In this document: positions 10,750-22,702 of the stretch, piece after piece | Layout: each line of letters begins with the position of its first letter | Numbering within the stretch: the stretch's first letter is position 1 | DNA from: Promethearchaeota archaeon | GTDB lineage: Archaea > Asgardarchaeota > Lokiarchaeia > Sigyniarchaeales > SOKP01 | Reading direction: 5' to 3' | Assembly: GCA_016839765.1 (NCBI GenBank) | Contig: JAEOTP010000019.1 | Span: forward strand, 1 to 22,702 | DNA: 22,702 nt | The notes under the pieces: model-generated | What the model was told of the DNA's origin: nothing | Database searches by the model: none | The model's input: only the letters and a program-made list of their open reading frames with translations | Program-made: the position numbers and the translations under genes

Positions 10750-12174
10750 TTATATATTGGCAGACGTAATTTGATCAAGTTGTTTTGCAAGAATTTCATC
10801 AATAGGTTTGATTGGGGACAATTTTTCTAATTTTAAAGTTTGCTCTATTGCTCTTTTTCTGATAGATTTTGATCCTGAGTCTTTCCATGCATCTCGAGAT
10901 AATCTATCTATAATTGGGCTTGGGAGAAATAATTCTTTTTTAAATAATTTCAAAGTTAAGGGATGGGATAATAATTCTTGTTTTTTATCATAAGCTTTTA
11001 GAATATTTGAAGCAAATGGAGCTCCAAAATTTTCAATACCTTTTAAGAATCTTTTTACCATTCCTATTATTTCATTATCGATTAATAATTTTTCAATACT
11101 CTGTGTAGATTCAAAATCTATCATTCCAGGTCCAGAAACCATATTAATCCCTGCTAAACCTGCTAATAGTGCTCCCATTCCTGCTTCAAATCCTGCTTGA
11201 GCATCAGGTACTTTTGAGTCACTTAAACTCATGTAGGCATGAGTCGGTAGTTTTAAAAATTTACCCATCTCAACATCCCCTATATTTATCATCATTGTCT
11301 CTATAGCACCCATAGGAGTCGTACCCCGCCTCATATCTAAAACAGCTGGAGATCCTCCCCATATCACTGGTGCTCCTTTTTTAGTTAATTGAGCTATCAC
11401 TACTCCTGCAAGAGATTCAGCACAATGTTGGGTTATAGAACCTATTAGAGTAATTGGAGCACTTGCACCAGCTAAAGGCATAGATACAAATTCTGAGGGA
11501 ATCATACTATTAGCAGCGTCAATAAGAGACTGAGTTGTCAAATCAGACCATTTTAGAGGAGGACTTGGGCAAGCGTCAAATACAGCTAAGGGTTTTCTAG
11601 CTAAATCCTCCTCTGACAATCTGCATGCTAGAAGTAATTCGCGCATAATTTTAAAACTTTCCTTCCGAAATGTTCCAGTAATAACTGGTTTATAACAATT
11701 AGATAATGCAAGATATAGACGATGCCAGTCTTGAGCCTCTTTTGGCACATCTTGATAAACAATCGCAGTACTTTGAGCGTCAATAAATTGTAATTGTTCT
11801 ACAATTTTTGAAAAATGTATAAAATCTTTAGATAAAGCCTCTCTAATTTCACCAGTTTTTTCATCTAGAATAAAAATAGCGGCGGATCCTGGATCAAAGT
11901 GAACATTATCTTTCGTTAATGATAGAAATTCTTTTCCCTCTCTATCATATAGCTTTATCTCATTAGGTATTGATTCTAAACATTTATCTACCAAATCTGA
12001 CGGAATAAAATAGCGAGAGTTCCTTTCATCAATACCATGTTGCTTGAATATTTTAATGGCTTCCTTGTTTTCCAGAAATATTCCTTGATTTTCAAGAATA
12101 TCCATTGCCTCGTTAAAGACTTTAATCTTATGTTCTTCATCTAATAGTTGGATTTTTGGCTTTAAAATCGTCAT
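10750..12174 (-). CDS. Trimethylamine methyltransferase (MttB/MtgB) superfamily protein, non-pyrrolysine
   Basis: SPPL, GASAPITLIGSITQHCAESLAGVVIAQLTKKGAPVIWG, DMRRG, SDSKVPDAQAGFE, LLIDNEI. No in-frame amber codon; Leu precedes SDSK where Pyl sits in methanogen MttB. Confidence 0.92.
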   Translation of the reverse strand: MTILKPKIQLLDEEHKIKVFNEAMDILENQGIFLENKEAIKIFKQHGIDERNSRYFIPSDLVDKCLESIPNEIKLYDREGKEFLSLTKDNVHFDPGSAAIFILDEKTGEIREALSKDFIHFSKIVEQLQFIDAQSTAIVYQDVPKEAQDWHRLYLALSNCYKPVITGTFRKESFKIMRELLLACRLSEEDLARKPLAVFDACPSPPLKWSDLTTQSLIDAANSMIPSEFVSMPLAGASAPITLIGSITQHCAESLAGVVIAQLTKKGAPVIWGGSPAVLDMRRGTTPMGAIETMMINIGDVEMGKFLKLPTHAYMSLSDSKVPDAQAGFEAGMGALLAGLAGINMVSGPGMIDFESTQSIEKLLIDNEIIGMVKRFLKGIENFGAPFASNILKAYDKKQELLSHPLTLKLFKKELFLPSPIIDRLSRDAWKDSGSKSIRKRAIEQTLKLEKLSPIKPIDEILAKQLDQITSANI

Positions 12175-12197
12175 ATCTTAATCACTTCTAATTTCTT

Positions 12198-13079
12198 TTA
12201 AACTAAGGCATCTAAACCCTTTTTTATCTCTTTTATAGTTTTTGGAGACGTTCCACAGCATCCTCCCACAATTTTTGCTCCTAATTTAACAATCTGTAAA
12301 ATGTCTTTAGCAAAGTCTTGCTCTGATTGATCATAATGAGTGATTCCGCCCTGTGTTAGTCTTGGTTTTCCTGCATTTGGTTTAATCGATATTGGTTTAT
12401 TAGTAATATTTTTCATTTCTTTAATTAATTCAATCATCTCTTTAGAACCTAAAGTACAGTTTCCTCCAATTATTTCAACATTCTCATTTTCTACTTTTTC
12501 TATGCAGTCTTTTAAGGAGTTTCCCATGATTGTGAAAAATCCACGTTTAGTCTTTTTATACGTCATGGAGCTAATTATAGGCTTTTTTGAGACTTCTTTT
12601 ACGGCTTGGATGGCAGCAACCATTTCTTCAATATCAGAAATGGTTTCTATGTGCCATAGGTCAATTCCAGGTTCTAAATATTTAATTTGTTTTAAATAAC
12701 TTGAATACCATTGTTCATATGTCGCTTTTCCTATTGGGGGTTTATATTCTCCTGATGGGCCAATATCCCCCACTATTAAATGATTAGGTGGGCAAACTTT
12801 TTTTAAATTTTCTATAGCCTTTTCGTTAATTTCTTTAATACGATCTTCAAGTTTATATTTTTGCAGATTCATATAACTAGAACCAAAAGTATTCGTTTGA
12901 CACATATCTGAACCAGCCTCATAGTAAGCTTTATGAATTTCTGTGACTATTTCGGATTGTTCCATATTAAGAATATCTGGTAATTTGCCTGGCTTGATTC
13001 CGCGTTTAAATATTTCAGTACCCATTCCACCATCAAATAAAATTATTTTCGAATCATCTTTTAGCCATTCTTTAAACAA
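12198..13079 (-). CDS. Stand-alone homocysteine S-methyltransferase domain (MetH N-terminal / BHMT-like); start TTG 13079 or ATT 13085
   Basis: LFDGGMGT, TNTFG, GDIGPSG, IET, GGNC, PNAGKP and GGCCGT (three Zn-binding Cys). Confidence 0.93.
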   Translation of the reverse strand: MFKEWLKDDSKIILFDGGMGTEIFKRGIKPGKLPDILNMEQSEIVTEIHKAYYEAGSDMCQTNTFGSSYMNLQKYKLEDRIKEINEKAIENLKKVCPPNHLIVGDIGPSGEYKPPIGKATYEQWYSSYLKQIKYLEPGIDLWHIETISDIEEMVAAIQAVKEVSKKPIISSMTYKKTKRGFFTIMGNSLKDCIEKVENENVEIIGGNCTLGSKEMIELIKEMKNITNKPISIKPNAGKPRLTQGGITHYDQSEQDFAKDILQIVKLGAKIVGGCCGTSPKTIKEIKKGLDALV

Positions 13080-13113
13080 AGTAATACTTTAATCAACTCC
13101 AATTTTTATTCTA

Positions 13114-13758
13114 TTAATCCATTAACTTTTTAATTAATTTAACTGCTTCTATGGCATTATCGGCATAGCCATCAGCTTGACATTCATTTACCCAATTTTG
13201 AGTAACTGGAGCACCACCTAATATCACTTTAAACTTATCTCGTATCCCCTTATCTTGCAAAATTTCAATAAGTTTCTTTTGACCAATCATTGTGGTGGTT
13301 AAAAGAGCTGAAACTCCAATTATGTTAGCATTTTTTTCGAGAGCAGTATTAATAATTTTTTCCGCAGAAACATCAGCACCTAAATCATATACTTCAAAAC
13401 CATTCGCACTTAACATAGTTGCTACAATTGTCTTACCAATTGAATGTATATCTCCCTCTATTGTAGCAATTACAACTTTTCCTGACATAATATCTTCTTT
13501 ATTTGCTTTTAAAAATGGTAATAGAATTTCCATTGATTCTTGAACAATATTTCCTCCAAGCATCAATTCTGGTAAGAAAAACTCTCCTTCTTCCCATAAT
13601 TCGCCTATACGACGAATACCCGCACCAAATCCCTTTTCAACTACGTCTAATAAATTCATATTTTCTTCTATTGCCTTTTTTGCAAAACTAATTGCTTTTT
13701 CTCTGTCTAAACTGACAATAGCTTCTGAAATTTCCTTATAAAAACTCTCTTGGGACAC
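13114..13758 (-). CDS. Methyltransferase cognate corrinoid protein (MttC/MtbC-like; cap + B12-binding domain)
   Basis: FFLPELM cap motif, EGDIHSIGK (DxHxxG), SALLTTTM, LGGAPV; GTG start with upstream GGAG. Confidence 0.95.
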   Translation of the reverse strand: MSQESFYKEISEAIVSLDREKAISFAKKAIEENMNLLDVVEKGFGAGIRRIGELWEEGEFFLPELMLGGNIVQESMEILLPFLKANKEDIMSGKVVIATIEGDIHSIGKTIVATMLSANGFEVYDLGADVSAEKIINTALEKNANIIGVSALLTTTMIGQKKLIEILQDKGIRDKFKVILGGAPVTQNWVNECQADGYADNAIEAVKLIKKLMD

Positions 13759-18021: not shown

Positions 18022-18294
18022 TTACTCTTTTTTACTTTTATTTTCTCCCTTTTTCTCGTCAGTAAGAAATTCTAAGTTTAAATTCTTAGCAAGCTTAAAA
18101 CCAATGTCAAAGAAAGTTTTTATAGAATTATAGAATAAATCTCCAATCGCTTCTGACTCTTGCTGATTCTTTTGGTTTGGAACTTTTGTTTCATCGGAAA
18201 TTAATGTACTCACTAAATCTTCTTTTTTCTTTTCTATTTCAGCATTTAAGTTCATTTGAACCTCATTAATATGTGAATCTTGATTATTAGACAT
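18022..18294 (-). CDS. Small hypothetical protein with an amphipathic helix similar to the N-terminal helix of the upstream acyltransferase
   Basis: Starts 20 nt downstream of the 18315 stop; GAAGGCGA RBS-like motif; shares the D..Y...K.....G..L...L pattern. Confidence 0.7.
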   Translation of the reverse strand: MSNNQDSHINEVQMNLNAEIEKKKEDLVSTLISDETKVPNQKNQQESEAIGDLFYNSIKTFFDIGFKLAKNLNLEFLTDEKKGENKSKKE

Positions 18295-18314
18295 TCTATT
18301 TCGCCTTCTTTTCT

Positions 18315-19007
18315 TTATTCAGATTCTGGTATTGCTTTTAATGATTCAATAATCTTTAGGATGTCCTCTGCTAACTCGTATCTTTGATCTCTGTATTTAT
18401 CACGATTTAAGTGTTTTTCGACTTTCAACGGAGTTCCAATTTTTACGCGTATTCCATCTACCTTAATCATGTTAAACAGTTTTGTCTTCTCTGAATAGAT
18501 TGCTAATGGAATAATAGGAGCGCCTCCTGCAACAGCGAATTTAATTATCCCTGCCATAGCTTTTAATTGAGTCTCAGGATCCAATTTTGATTCAGGTGTC
18601 ATTGCCACTAGGTCACCAACTTCATTAAGATAATGAAATACTTTATCAATTGGCTCTGTATCCTCTTTATCATAAGTGCTACGGAACATACCAAGTGCCT
18701 TTAAAACAGGTCCATAAATCTGATGGCTCATTAATTTATGATGTACCATAAAATGAATCCTACGTCCAGATACTTGGCTTATTATTGCAATATCCCTTAA
18801 AGCATTGTCACTTAAAGTTGTTAATATTGCTTTATCCCTAAGAGGAATATTCTCTTTTCCATCAATTTTTAGGCCAGTAAAAAGTGATAACCCTGCCCAA
18901 CTAAGTCCTTTAACTGTGCCATACAGAACATCATTCAACAATTCCTTACTAAAAAGTTTATCTTTTCCCTTTGTTTCTGGTTCTGGTTCTTGAGTTACTT
19001 CTGCCAT
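18315..19007 (-). CDS. PlsC/lysophospholipid acyltransferase-fold protein with degenerate catalytic motif
   Basis: LKIDGKENIP, RRIHFM, GPVLKALG, MTPES (cf. FPEG), APIIPLAI, VKIGTPL. Block I NHxSxxD is replaced by TLSDNALRD. Confidence 0.82.
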   Translation of the reverse strand: MAEVTQEPEPETKGKDKLFSKELLNDVLYGTVKGLSWAGLSLFTGLKIDGKENIPLRDKAILTTLSDNALRDIAIISQVSGRRIHFMVHHKLMSHQIYGPVLKALGMFRSTYDKEDTEPIDKVFHYLNEVGDLVAMTPESKLDPETQLKAMAGIIKFAVAGGAPIIPLAIYSEKTKLFNMIKVDGIRVKIGTPLKVEKHLNRDKYRDQRYELAEDILKIIESLKAIPESE

Positions 19008-19032
19008 TTTTTTATACCTTTTTTTTATTTTA

Positions 19033-19227
19033 TTATAATTTATCTACAAAATCATTAACTTCCTCCATTCGTCTCTCATAATATTCCTTTAATTCCTTTT
19101 CAGAAACAAATGTTGGAATTACTTTTTCTAAAAAAATATCAAATATAGTTGATAATTTAGTCTTATGTTGTAAGGTTTCGAGGAATTCCTCCCCCAATTC
19201 CTTTAAATTTTTAATAAATTCTGTCAT
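19033..19227 (-). CDS. Small acidic amphipathic-helical hypothetical protein
   Basis: 64 aa, strong AGGAGG RBS, 23-25 nt gaps to both neighbours. Confidence 0.75.
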   Translation of the reverse strand: MTEFIKNLKELGEEFLETLQHKTKLSTIFDIFLEKVIPTFVSEKELKEYYERRMEEVNDFVDKL

Positions 19228-19250
19228 ATTTATTATCTAACCTCCTGAAG

Positions 19251-20273
19251 TTAAAGTATCTCAGACCATTTTCCACATCTCGATCCCCATCTAGCAATAA
19301 CCTCGTCTTTCTCAACCAGAGAGCAAGTTATTATCTCACAGTTGTTAGGACAATCCCCGCAGTTAAATGCTTTCGTCTCGAATTCAATATCCGCAACTTT
19401 AAGTCCTCGAAATGTTGTTTCCTGCTCATGTTCTTGATAATAATCCCTTACTAATATTGCCATTCCTAAAGCACCCATAAGAACATTATATTTCGGAACT
19501 AAGACTTTACAACCAAGATGCCTTTCAAATGCTTGAACAATTCCTTTATTATATGAGACACCTCCCTGAAAAACAACAGGCTCATCCAAATCTTTTCCTT
19601 TAGACAAGTTATTCAAATAATTCCGGACAAGGGAATCACATAAGCCAGCAATAATATCCTCTTTGGAATAACCAGCATTTTGTTTATGTATCATATCTGA
19701 TTCTGCAAAGACAGTGCACCTCCCTGCGATACTAGCTCGATTCTTTGATTTCACAGCATAACTACCAAACTCCTCAATAGGAATTCCAAGTCTTCTTGCT
19801 TGATGATCCAAAAATGAACCTGTTCCAGCAGCACAAACAGAATTCATAGCAAAATCTACAATAATTCCATCTCTAAGTATAATGATCTTTGAGTCTTGAC
19901 CTCCGATTTCTAAAATTGTTCTTACATCAGGATACATAGATTGTGTTGCAACCGCGTGAGCAATAATCTCAGTTTTGGCAAGATCTCCTCCTACTACCGC
20001 CTTGGTTAAATATCTTGCCGATCCTGTGGTGCCACAACAACGTATTGCATAAGCTTTCAATTCTGGATTATCTTCTATATTATTTCGTAATTCTGCCATA
20101 CCTACTTTAGCGGAATCAATGGGAGAACCTTCATTACGTAAGAAAACACTCGTTAATACTTTTCCATTTGTGTCCATTAGAACAAATTTACAACTCACAC
20201 TCCCGATATCAATTCCTAAGAATGCATCCTTCTTTTCTACTTCTACCTTTACTTTATCAGAAACTTGAACCAT
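19251..20273 (-). CDS. ATP-dependent [4Fe-4S] CoA-substrate enzyme activase (HgdC/BadFG, ASKHA fold) with extra C-terminal Cys cluster; PlsA activase-like
   Basis: LGIDIGSVSCK, TTGSAR, EIGGQDSK, MNSVCAAGTGSFLD, CTVFAESD, FQGGV, then FNCGDCPNNC...GSRC. Confidence 0.93.
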   Translation of the reverse strand: MVQVSDKVKVEVEKKDAFLGIDIGSVSCKFVLMDTNGKVLTSVFLRNEGSPIDSAKVGMAELRNNIEDNPELKAYAIRCCGTTGSARYLTKAVVGGDLAKTEIIAHAVATQSMYPDVRTILEIGGQDSKIIILRDGIIVDFAMNSVCAAGTGSFLDHQARRLGIPIEEFGSYAVKSKNRASIAGRCTVFAESDMIHKQNAGYSKEDIIAGLCDSLVRNYLNNLSKGKDLDEPVVFQGGVSYNKGIVQAFERHLGCKVLVPKYNVLMGALGMAILVRDYYQEHEQETTFRGLKVADIEFETKAFNCGDCPNNCEIITCSLVEKDEVIARWGSRCGKWSEIL

Positions 20274-20285
20274 ATCATCACTTTT

Positions 20286-21473
20286 TTATTGATTTTGAAT
20301 CATTTGAAAGCATTCTTTATAAAAATTACTTCCATATTCATGATAAATATCATCTAAATCTTGTTTTAAATAATCTCTTTTGTGGGCAAGTTTATGCTCA
20401 CGACGAGAATACATGAGATCTACAAATGCTTCTAAGCGCGTTCGAAAGCCTTCAAATGCCATTGCCTCATCAAATGAAAAGAAAATAACTGGTAAATCAT
20501 AAACCTTCTTGAGTTTATTGGTTATGATGGTACGAGCTGTGACCTCTGGCATGCAGGTAAACGGATAAATATGTGCCATCCCATCGAAACCTGCGCGAGC
20601 CCTATCAATATATTCGCCCAAAACCCATATGCATTCCCCTCCAATATCCATTGGGACATACGGTTTTGCCAGATGTTCTAGCCATTTTCTGTGATAATTC
20701 AAGTGAAACTTGTGTACAACCCAATCCCATAAGCTTAAATTTTGATGAATTTCTACTTGCATTTCACCTAATTTGCGTCTTATATCTAAATTAACGTATG
20801 GTTCTAAAGAAATGTGAATTTCACCAGATACTGCAACTTTTAATGGATTTCGAGTTTTGTCAACGTCAATTTTGGTAAAATCTTCTTTAATGACCTTTTT
20901 AAAATTCCTTAAGCCTTTGAGGGTATTTGTCTCATCAAGTTTTAATAATAATTTTTTTACAACTCTTGTAGTATCACCTTGGTTGCGTTCATATGCGCGA
21001 TATAACCCTTCTGCAGTTTGTATATCATTCAATAATTTCGCTTTCTTCACAAAAAATATGACAGCTTTTACAAATTTTGAATAAATGAAAGGATCACTTC
21101 TCCCAGTAACTTGTTGAAGAGTTTTGACCCAATGAAATTCCAGAAGATCCGCCTGGTCCAAGGGAATCATGACAAAATCCTTATATCCCATGTCTCTTAA
21201 GATTCGCTCTTGGACACTCGCGTAGAATCCAAAGCGACAAGGTCCACAGTCAATAGCCATGACTAATACATCGGCTCCCTTATCTAATGCATTTTTGAAA
21301 TCTCCAATCGTTGCCTTAAATGGAAAACAGACAAATTCAGGGCTATATTTGACACCAATCTTAACGGCTTCTCGATTAGTCGGATCGGGCAATACAACGT
21401 CTAAATCCAAAGCAGTGAATAAAGTTTTAAATGCAACCCAGTTGGGACCCATATTGGGAAAACTTATAAGCAT
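20286..21473 (-). CDS. 2-hydroxyacyl-CoA dehydratase-like Fe-S reductase subunit (PlsR-like partner of the activase)
   Basis: ISFPNMG, GVKYSPEFVCFPFK, CGPCRFGFY, GEI, GGE, PFTCMPE, FDE...GFRTRLEAFVDL. Confidence 0.85.
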   Translation of the reverse strand: MLISFPNMGPNWVAFKTLFTALDLDVVLPDPTNREAVKIGVKYSPEFVCFPFKATIGDFKNALDKGADVLVMAIDCGPCRFGFYASVQERILRDMGYKDFVMIPLDQADLLEFHWVKTLQQVTGRSDPFIYSKFVKAVIFFVKKAKLLNDIQTAEGLYRAYERNQGDTTRVVKKLLLKLDETNTLKGLRNFKKVIKEDFTKIDVDKTRNPLKVAVSGEIHISLEPYVNLDIRRKLGEMQVEIHQNLSLWDWVVHKFHLNYHRKWLEHLAKPYVPMDIGGECIWVLGEYIDRARAGFDGMAHIYPFTCMPEVTARTIITNKLKKVYDLPVIFFSFDEAMAFEGFRTRLEAFVDLMYSRREHKLAHKRDYLKQDLDDIYHEYGSNFYKECFQMIQNQ

Positions 21474-21682: not shown

Positions 21683-21973
21683 CTAAATCTTTTTTAGTTC
21701 CATTCTTTCTTTAGTTTTTGTTTGTATTAATTCAATTGCGTCAAAAGGGCAGATTTCTCTATTTAATATTTTCTTCGAAACTTCTAAAATTATGTCAGAA
21801 TTATATTCATTTTCGCCTTCACGCAATTCTGACACTAATGATTTTAAAACTTTCAAATCTAAATCAAGACGTTTCAAATAATCTATATTTGATTTTTCTT
21901 TGCTCTTCATTAATTCCCAATTCAAATTAAGACGTTTCAAGTAATCCATATTTGAGTTTTTTTTACTCATCAT
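21683..21973 (-). CDS. Hypothetical protein with a 21-aa N-terminal tandem duplication
   Basis: MMSKKNSNMDYLKRLNLNWEL / MKSKEKSNIDYLKRLDLDLKV. Confidence 0.55.
   Translation of the reverse strand: MMSKKNSNMDYLKRLNLNWELMKSKEKSNIDYLKRLDLDLKVLKSLVSELREGENEYNSDIILEVSKKILNREICPFDAIELIQTKTKERMELKKI
21848..21973 (-). repeat. Two diverged 63-nt tandem units
   Basis: 'gacgtttcaa' at 21868 and 21931; flanking 'atatttga' also repeats at 63-nt spacing. Confidence 0.88.
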
Positions 21974-22391: not shown

Positions 22392-22581
22392 TCATACATC
22401 CTGAGCAGATTTAATCTTTATTTTTTCCCTTGGACTTAATCCAAGTTTTTTCCTCTTTCTTCGAACCATTTCAACAAAAGATTCTATTCTCGTGAGCATA
22501 CCAGCCTCCCCAATATGTTCATCCATAATAATCTCCAGAAACGATAATCCAACACTTTCATATCCCGCATAATCAAGTTTT
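22392..22581 (-). pseudogene. 3' fragment of a DUF2229-type activase-associated/reductase subunit gene
   Basis: Manual translation: KLDYAGYESVGLSFLEIIMDEHIGEAGMLTRIESFVEMVRRKRKKLGLSPREKIKIKSAQDV*. DEH-x-GEAG-x-x-TR-x-E-x-F is the C-terminal signature of this family. The frame is closed upstream by TGA at about 22617-22615. Confidence 0.75.
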
Positions 22582-22702
22582 GAAGGGAAAACAGACGAAC
22601 TCAGGGCTGTGTTTCACGCCAATCTTCACATCGTTACGATTCGTGGGATCTGGCAGAATCACCTCGGCACCCATACACTCGAAGAAAGTCTTGAACGCCG
22701 GC
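22573..22702 (-). pseudogene. GC-rich 5' fragment of a second PlsR-like gene, truncated by the window edge and an internal stop
   Basis: PAFKTFFECMGAEVILPDPTNRNDVKIGVKHSPEFVCFPFKT* versus VAFKTLFTALDLDVVLPDPTNREAVKIGVKYSPEFVCFPFKA in 20286-21473. Hand count gives 63 G+C in the last 122 nt (about 52%). Confidence 0.8.

Follow-up and report, generated by a model that had tools for sequence, protein, structure and literature searches.

The described enzymes closest to the system analysed here are the ether-forming enzymes PlsA/PlsR, the anaerobic plasmalogen synthase known as CPE1194/1195 in Clostridium perfringens and as single-gene forms in Enterococcus and Listeria, and Ger, the glycerol ester reductase known from Thermotoga maritima (Tmari_0479) and D. 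alkenivorans. PlsA/PlsR forms vinyl ethers from diacyl phospholipids at the sn-1 acyl ester, and Ger gives saturated alkyl ethers. Both are delimited by architecture: PlsA/PlsR by the fusion of DUF2229 with two activation domains, encoded by one or two genes, and Ger by the BBD core (two PF01869 domains plus PF09989 in one protein), which is conserved in all confirmed alkyl-ether producers (PMC13159169). By sequence, Ger and PlsA are indistinguishable (PMC13274423). Fused Ger homologues have already been published from Lokiarchaeota (PMC13159169), and lokiarchaeal PlsC and PlsY homologues have already been noted (PMC6431249, PMC9385802), with a role that reviews call unresolved (PMC9385802, PMC12993045). 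Here we describe an unfused relative of these enzymes, encoded together with acyltransferases in a Promethearchaeota archaeon (assembly GCA_016839765.1) and conserved among its relatives. The stretch analysed, hereafter the window, is the whole of contig JAEOTP010000019.1 (C77; 22,702 nucleotides, nt) of a 3.3-Mb genome that is 96% complete. Our literature search, which was incomplete, returned no description of a split reductase in an acyltransferase operon, of its small subunit or of the mobile flavoprotein cassette that occupies the same locus in relatives.

The preliminary description of this DNA, made from the letters alone, had suspected an Asgard host, and the archaeon indeed belongs to the Lokiarchaeia, its close relatives being nearly all Asgard and mostly Promethearchaeota. 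Only the rear half of the cluster lies inside the window, as five minus-strand open reading frames (ORFs) of 395, 340, 64, 230 and 90 amino acids (aa) with intergenic gaps of 12, 23, 25 and 20 nt, as expected from the initial reading of five co-oriented genes 12-25 nt apart; the front half, comprising a haloacid dehalogenase (HAD) phosphatase, a double PlsC and subunit A, is on contig C61. Ribosome-binding motifs, originally reported before most of the genes, are clear at subunit B (AGGAG) and the 64-aa gene (GGAGG), and GTGAT precedes the activase, but they are weak at the other two. The genes of the cluster are as follows.

20286..21473, minus strand: subunit B, the PlsR-equivalent Fe-S reductase/dehydratase half, 395 aa (DUF2229 N-terminal part plus HGD-D)
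19251..20273, minus strand: single-domain ATP-dependent activase, 340 aa, with a C-terminal CxxCxNxC...RC tail (PF01869, TIGR00241)
19033..19227, minus strand: 64-aa helical protein, probable fourth subunit docking on B (gene linkage, co-fold)
18315..19007, minus strand: PlsC-fold pseudo-acyltransferase, 230 aa (PF01553, E 2.8e-7; histidine of HX4D lost)
18022..18294, minus strand: 90-aa helical protein, variably present (15/47 loci)
C61:492-1568: intact subunit A gene (full DUF2229), behind the HAD phosphatase and the 561-aa double PlsC

The assignment of this enzyme to a split PlsA/PlsR-like family, as first proposed, is upheld by DUF2229, the cysteine tail and profile scores, and not by the tree. 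In family searches, B combines a DUF2229 N-terminal part with a weak HGD-D C-terminal part, the latter below the cut-off, and has no Had or Bzd equivalog match. Three cysteines of B (C49, C79 and C307) are invariant across 75 homologues, and A has invariant C63, C101 and C289; those of B align with the three cysteine motifs of PlsR-architecture proteins and those of A with the PlsA-type DUF2229 module, which places all six cluster cysteines in register with PlsA/PlsR. The alignment references were PlsA/PlsR-architecture proteins of Fusobacterium and Listeria; more generally, the assayed CPE1194/1195 and Tmari_0479 were represented by proteins of matching architecture from Listeria, Fusobacterium and Collinsella. 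On fused PlsA-type DUF2229 domains the A profile reaches 74-157 bits, versus at most 21 on HgdA/Bzd/DCCP/YjiM, and the B profile reaches 21-65 bits on fused PlsA-type proteins versus at most 11 on the same set, whose reference subunits had been checked for identity. The predicted model of B (predicted local distance difference test, pLDDT, 92.9) shares its fold with HadBC/DCCP/Bzd at 10-16% identity, in line with membership of the superfamily. Judged by sequence, A, B and the activase thus fit PlsA/PlsR module by module far better than HgdAB or Bzd. Elsewhere in the genome a separate bzd-type benzoyl-coenzyme A (CoA) reductase is encoded (L002, G000 C33:168000-173000), with BzdN and BzdO above the cut-off and two activases.

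The activase matches PF01869 (E 3e-48) and TIGR00241, and carries the CxxCxNxC...RC tail noted in the preliminary description. Every split-type activase has the CxxCxNxC motif, as do nearly all sampled fused PlsA-type proteins behind Act2, and none of the sampled HgdC, BzdP/Q, DCCP-R and YjiL activases has it; on this motif evidence, the Lokiarchaeia activase is the equivalent of PlsA activation domain 2 plus its linker. In the best trees, which answer the initial call for a phylogeny against HgdC types, the window sequence joins those of bacterial three-gene operons in a split-type clade supported at 98-99%, PlsC-linked Lokiarchaeia sequences cluster roughly by host family, and HgdC/Bzd/DCCP-R/YjiL form one long separate branch (100% support). 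Phylogeny was nevertheless dropped as a decisive family test, as the approximately unbiased (AU) test gives p 0.42 for the HgdC types as sister group. All homologues that a search with the activase brought up were close relatives, with identities of about 80% or higher.

Linkage to acyltransferase genes is conserved at the locus. Uninterrupted relatives (L042-L045, L049 and L178) have the order HAD, double PlsC, A, B, activase, 64-aa gene, His-less PlsC, 90-aa gene. Of the loci with enough DNA downstream of B, all 47 have the activase behind it, 46 have the 64-aa gene, 44 the PlsC-fold gene and no more than 15 the 90-aa gene. The five-gene order, whose synteny the preliminary description proposed to test across Asgard genomes, is largely kept except for its variable last member, and this arrangement is not due to chance. 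A stand-alone A occurs in 50/61 Lokiarchaeia genomes sampled, and by hand count 46 of these 50 have an intact PlsC within about 4 kb upstream on the same strand, the remaining four comprising three loci split across contigs and one paralogue; the sample is dominated by one family, and related genomes are not independent. The linkage persists in other Lokiarchaeia families and orders, and it outlasts changes of acyltransferase architecture from double-domain to triple-domain proteins or two separate genes. MK-D1, the cultured type strain, carries the operon (L056). In the genome under study, the PF01553 domains found number three, of which two are catalytically intact; all sit in the cluster, together with the only full DUF2229 found. 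Two loci from other Lokiarchaeia orders (L052 and L059) have an acyltransferase of about 876 aa with three domains, a LarA-like nickel racemase and a HAD protein, followed by A-B-activase; LarA is absent from most cluster versions. Across the phylum, full DUF2229 was found in Lokiarchaeia and in one other Asgard family (16/17, in fused and split forms), and two large Asgard families searched for it gave 0/32 and 0/14.

The lipid connection drawn at the outset from the PlsC-fold gene stands as far as linkage is concerned (44/47 loci) and is joined by intact PlsC domains on C61, but the window protein itself has lost the histidine of HX4D while keeping the aspartate, and has PES instead of PEG. 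The histidine is absent, and PES or PEA present, in all aligned orthologues. The PlsC fold is kept, with T. maritima PlsC (5KYM) as the best fold match (E 3e-6), and the protein is probably an accessory one that presents a lipid or acyl-CoA. Conversely, the 561-aa double PlsC on C61 has HX4D and PEG intact in both domains. The combination of an active PlsC with one lacking the histidine is also seen in other lineages; in family f2 (L054, L055 and L057), the upstream pair of PlsC genes likewise includes one without the catalytic histidine. The 90-aa protein was considered as an acyl carrier protein (ACP) and this was ruled out, since the weak ACP match was not reproduced in homologues and had no PP-binding or DSL support. 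Searches of the genome returned no phosphopantetheinyl transferase. A PcrB/GGGPS gene lies beside a UbiA/DGGGPS gene on C17, the search for glycerol-1-phosphate (G1P) dehydrogenase (PF13685, the one family tried) gave weak Fe-ADH matches only, and a glycerol-kinase-like gene scored below the cut-off. On another contig (L183/L184, G000 C51:43677-45559), two tandem genes of about 400 aa each combine an N-terminal PlsY with a further membrane domain and adjoin a TFB-like gene.

The 64-aa gene follows the activase in Lokiarchaeia families f1, f2, f3, f6 and f7, and is present in the PlsC-linked clade and not in unlinked paralogues. When co-folded with A and B, as the preliminary description had advised for the subunits, the 64-aa protein is predicted to dock on B with an ipSAE interface score of 0.80, versus 0.00 for the best control. 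In calibration, the 0.80 mark was reached by 58/80 solved and 2/110 mismatched pairs, counts that were obtained with single-chain pairs and apply only roughly to the 64-aa protein with A plus B. Runs agree in at least 98% of contacts, with a partner pLDDT of 70-72, and the confident contacts are all on B, at residues 253-267 and above all Y260. PlsR-type and fused proteins have 44-69 extra residues exactly between B positions 259 and 260, and a short H-x-N-[YF] loop at this site is typical of lineages having the 64-aa gene. Because it is predicted to dock on B exactly at the PlsR insertion site, the 64-aa protein is probably a fourth subunit that would supply the PlsR insertion in trans. Its equivalence to that insertion is positional only, no sequence homology between the two being detected, and an Atlas search with the protein returned no match.

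The Lokiarchaeia enzyme has in common with PlsA/PlsR the activase, cysteine tail, DUF2229 and PlsR-like modules, and Ger consists of the same modules. It differs from PlsA/PlsR in being made of three to four proteins in the permuted order A-B-activase, with one activase domain instead of two, in a B without the 44-69-aa insertion, apparently supplied by the separate 64-aa protein, in its low identity and in its operon with acyltransferases. Unlike Ger, it does not have two activases plus DUF2229 in a single chain and belongs to a separate split clade; fused Ger-like versions of about 1400 aa occur in related Lokiarchaeia, and a search of the genome under study returned no fused Ger/PlsA-type copy. 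The enzyme plausibly works like PlsA/PlsR or Ger, and since it lacks the BBD core and the fusion of two activation domains to DUF2229, we regard it as a variant rather than a member of either. HgdABC/HadIBC, Bzd/Bcr and DCCP:DCCP-R share the fold of B and the activase core, but have neither DUF2229 nor the cysteine tail, are 10-16% identical to B and act on soluble substrates; the DUF2229-bearing A and B do not match the HGD-D, HadB, HadC or BzdN/O-type subunits without DUF2229 that characterize this group. The nearest relatives by gene order are uncharacterized DUF2229/HGD-D/activase operons of Bacillota and Nitrospirota (for example, Monoglobus WP_102365312/311/310), which have the same order and the same activase clade (98-99%). 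Activase identity is 53%, and in the contexts seen these bacterial operons have no PlsC, HAD or 64-aa gene alongside. Compared with PlsC and lysophospholipid acyltransferases, the window protein has the 5KYM-type fold but no histidine, and the motifs of the C61 double PlsC are intact.

Between A and B, the locus is interrupted in the studied genome. The segment 22392-22581, initially read as the 3' end of a functional DUF2229 subunit, is instead a recombination scar of 53 codons, 91% identical to the C-terminus of the intact A on C61. It is preceded, out of frame, by a 41-codon B-like scar, and lies 418 nt upstream of a 96-aa ORF that itself lies 209 nt upstream of B. The junction contains the following features.

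21683..21973, minus strand: 96-aa orphan ORF in the variable A/B junction, outside the enzyme (no family)
22392..22581, minus strand: scar, second copy of the 3' end of A, covering aa 306-358 (91% identity to the intact gene)
22576..22702, minus strand: scar, B-like N-terminal fragment (aa 14-54; 71% identity, 52% GC), at which the contig ends

The 96-aa ORF has no family match and no counterpart in 69 related loci. The layout of B-scar, A-scar and B recurs at L078 (83% DNA identity over 307 nt), and the B scar at the window end matches, with 93% DNA identity over 159 nt, the downstream flank of the cassette in another species (L080); this fragment is the right flank of an inserted cassette. 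Contig C61, for its part, terminates with part of B and then the opening 60 codons of an 808-aa fusion of a flavin adenine dinucleotide (FAD) domain with DUF2229 (L001:1-181), which opens a three-gene cassette in many relatives, and this end is 96.6% identical over 700 nt to L136. Misassembly at the contig ends is an unlikely origin of the scars, the same junctions being present in other species. Because both junctions are common to other species, C61 and C77 are very probably neighbours, with the cassette between them left unassembled.

In relatives, the cassette consists of the DHCR24-like FAD domain/DUF2229 fusion, a second activase and a second B, inserted between A and B (L040:3485-8267, L037, L038, L041 and L094) and flanked by scrambled A and B scars. 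Its genes are 94-96% identical at the DNA level in seven genomes whose resident genes are 77-78% identical, and because of this disparity the cassette looks to have spread laterally by recombination; no integrase was identified in it. The locus accumulates other insertions. Pairs of PlsA plus PlsR architecture (about 980 and 470 aa) lie just downstream of A at L037:12975-17335, L176:11960-16328 and L177:9019-13404, up to three reductase types are stacked at the A/B junction in some relatives, and in one relative the junction contains a 1041-aa protein with a LAGLIDADG domain (L041:9533-12658). The FAD domain of the cassette is kin of proteins annotated as delta-24-sterol reductase, a type of lipid C=C reductase, one of them at 56% identity. 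Protein P0321 of the anaerobic protist Anaeramoeba flamelloides, annotated as 24-dehydrocholesterol reductase, is 56% identical to the domain. The domain may also be kin of BfaA/TmsA. An assignment as alkyl-dihydroxyacetone-phosphate synthase was rejected, the match being weak (E 5e-5) and the homologues including delta-24-sterol reductase. Two stand-alone homologues of the FAD domain have no lipid genes nearby. From its relatives, the cassette flavoprotein would be a candidate for the missing vinyl-to-alkyl ether enzyme that is invoked in PMC13274423.

The cluster is a real and conserved feature, and almost certainly a lipid-related one. To the reading that it is a Lokiarchaeia-wide operon coupling acyl-glycerolipid synthesis with reduction of the ester to a (vinyl-)ether, we assign a probability of about 0.57, substrate, product, direction and accessory roles being those we infer from the comparisons above. 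The two intact PlsC domains, perhaps with the PlsY fusions, would transfer acyl groups from acyl-CoA, as esters, to a backbone of glycerol-phosphate or lyso-lipid, and a phosphate would be removed by the HAD enzyme. An activase homodimer would hydrolyse ATP and drive low-potential electrons, probably via an extra metal centre of the cysteine tail, into an A/B heterodimer in which each subunit would hold a three-cysteine 4Fe-4S site. A/B would then reduce the acyl ester carbonyl and eliminate water, giving a vinyl ether of the plasmalogen type, from which an alkyl ether may arise by further reduction; the 64-aa protein would act as a membrane-facing lid completing B in trans, the His-less PlsC would present the lipid, and the cassette flavoprotein would possibly saturate the vinyl ether. 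For the split enzyme, this mechanism would follow the one proposed for PlsA/PlsR, with its two one-electron reductions and its protonation and dehydration steps (PMC8788747). A vinyl ether appears the likelier product because in Bacillota the presence of a single activation domain correlates with plasmalogens and not with alkyl ethers (PMC13274423), and acyl-CoA the likelier donor because no ACP system was found. A fuller version, in which the pathway predates the split of the Lokiarchaeia orders and turns acyl glycerolipids into plasmalogens or alkyl ethers for mixed membranes, using a four-subunit unfused enzyme with a 64-aa lid and a cassette flavoprotein that saturates the vinyl ether, is put forward only tentatively.

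Several observations weigh against ether formation from acyl lipids. In the literature found, no split single-activase enzyme has been assayed or shown to make ethers, and in every confirmed alkyl-ether producer a single protein combines DUF2229 with two activation domains (PMC13159169). Although MK-D1 carries the operon, its co-culture was reported to contain only phytane and biphytanes (PMC11316595). The identity of B to PlsR-type proteins is low (profile about 44 bits), the AU test does not reject the HgdC-type branch as sister to the Lokiarchaeia activases, and neither ACP synthase nor GpsA was found in the genome. Bacterial split homologues (four contexts) have no PlsC alongside, and neither do split paralogues in another Asgard family. 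The LarA-like racemase in some cluster versions would fit 2-hydroxyacyl dehydration. One alternative is that the enzyme is a radical dehydratase/reductase tailoring an acyl chain, for example by 2-hydroxyl removal from a lipid or a long-chain acyl-CoA, without forming an ether, the PlsC enzymes making ester, hybrid acyl/isoprenoid or storage lipids. The superfamily fold is the same as in 2-hydroxyacyl-CoA dehydratases, a LarA-like racemase stands in L052 and L059, the DHCR24-like fusion could work as an enoyl reductase and MK-D1 has no reported non-isoprenoid ethers; but the DUF2229 enzymes of tested function in the literature found (PlsA/PlsR and Ger) all make ethers and most cluster versions have no LarA, and we consider acyl-chain tailoring unlikely.

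It is also conceivable, if improbable, that the operon builds isoprenoid or hybrid ethers by an acyl route, with PlsC moving an isoprenoid acyl group or acylating an archaeal lyso-ether and the reductase making the ether, so that the products would look archaeal. This would suit MK-D1, which has the operon and isoprenoid ethers and is reported to lack geranylgeranylglyceryl phosphate (GGGP) synthase, as well as a genome in which no ACP system and, in the one family tried, no clear G1P dehydrogenase match was found; it sits poorly with the adjacent PcrB/GGGPS and UbiA/DGGGPS genes on C17, and the use of isoprenoid acyl donors by PlsC is, to our knowledge, without precedent. Decidedly improbable, in our view, is an ordinary fermentative acyl-CoA dehydratase/reductase of the HgdABC, HadIBC or Bzd type whose acyltransferase neighbourhood is historical, the other possibility raised in the preliminary description. 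Lokiarchaeia do ferment amino acids (PMC11316595), and the AU result (p 0.42) is compatible with HgdC-type kinship. The fermentative enzymes, however, are devoid of DUF2229 and the cysteine tail, their activases form the separate branch with 100% support, a bzd-type reductase is encoded separately on C33, neither a CoA-transferase nor an acyl-CoA dehydrogenase was recognized in the conserved part of the cluster, and the PlsC linkage extends across orders. A role in which bacterial ester lipids are scavenged and then salvaged or remodelled as a carbon source, and not for membrane building, would fit a sediment heterotroph in which a fatty-acid carrier system was not found, but ATP-driven reduction is costly, the intact PlsC domains are synthetic and neither a lipase nor a transporter turned up among the genes conserved in the cluster, which makes this reading highly improbable.

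Two further observations concern the window. Short contigs from two metatranscriptome runs match the activase and PlsC-fold genes exactly, which without a silent control is no proof of transcription. Near the lipid operon, positions 10750-13758 encode an MttB-family methyltransferase, a homocysteine S-methyltransferase domain and a corrinoid protein, an arrangement conserved in the genus.

Synthesis of bacterial- or eukaryote-type lipids by Asgard archaea, which are closely related to eukaryotes, is an open question of the lipid-divide debate, and the operon ties Asgard acyltransferases to a specific downstream chemistry that its presence in cultured MK-D1 makes directly testable. The split enzyme would define a minimal unfused PlsA/Ger architecture suited to structural work, and its cassette would name a candidate for the missing vinyl-to-alkyl ether reductase. 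It would also add archaea to the possible sources of sediment non-isoprenoid glycerol ethers now assigned to bacteria. Should the fuller version of the pathway hold, Asgard membranes would mix isoprenoid and fatty-acid-derived ether lipids.

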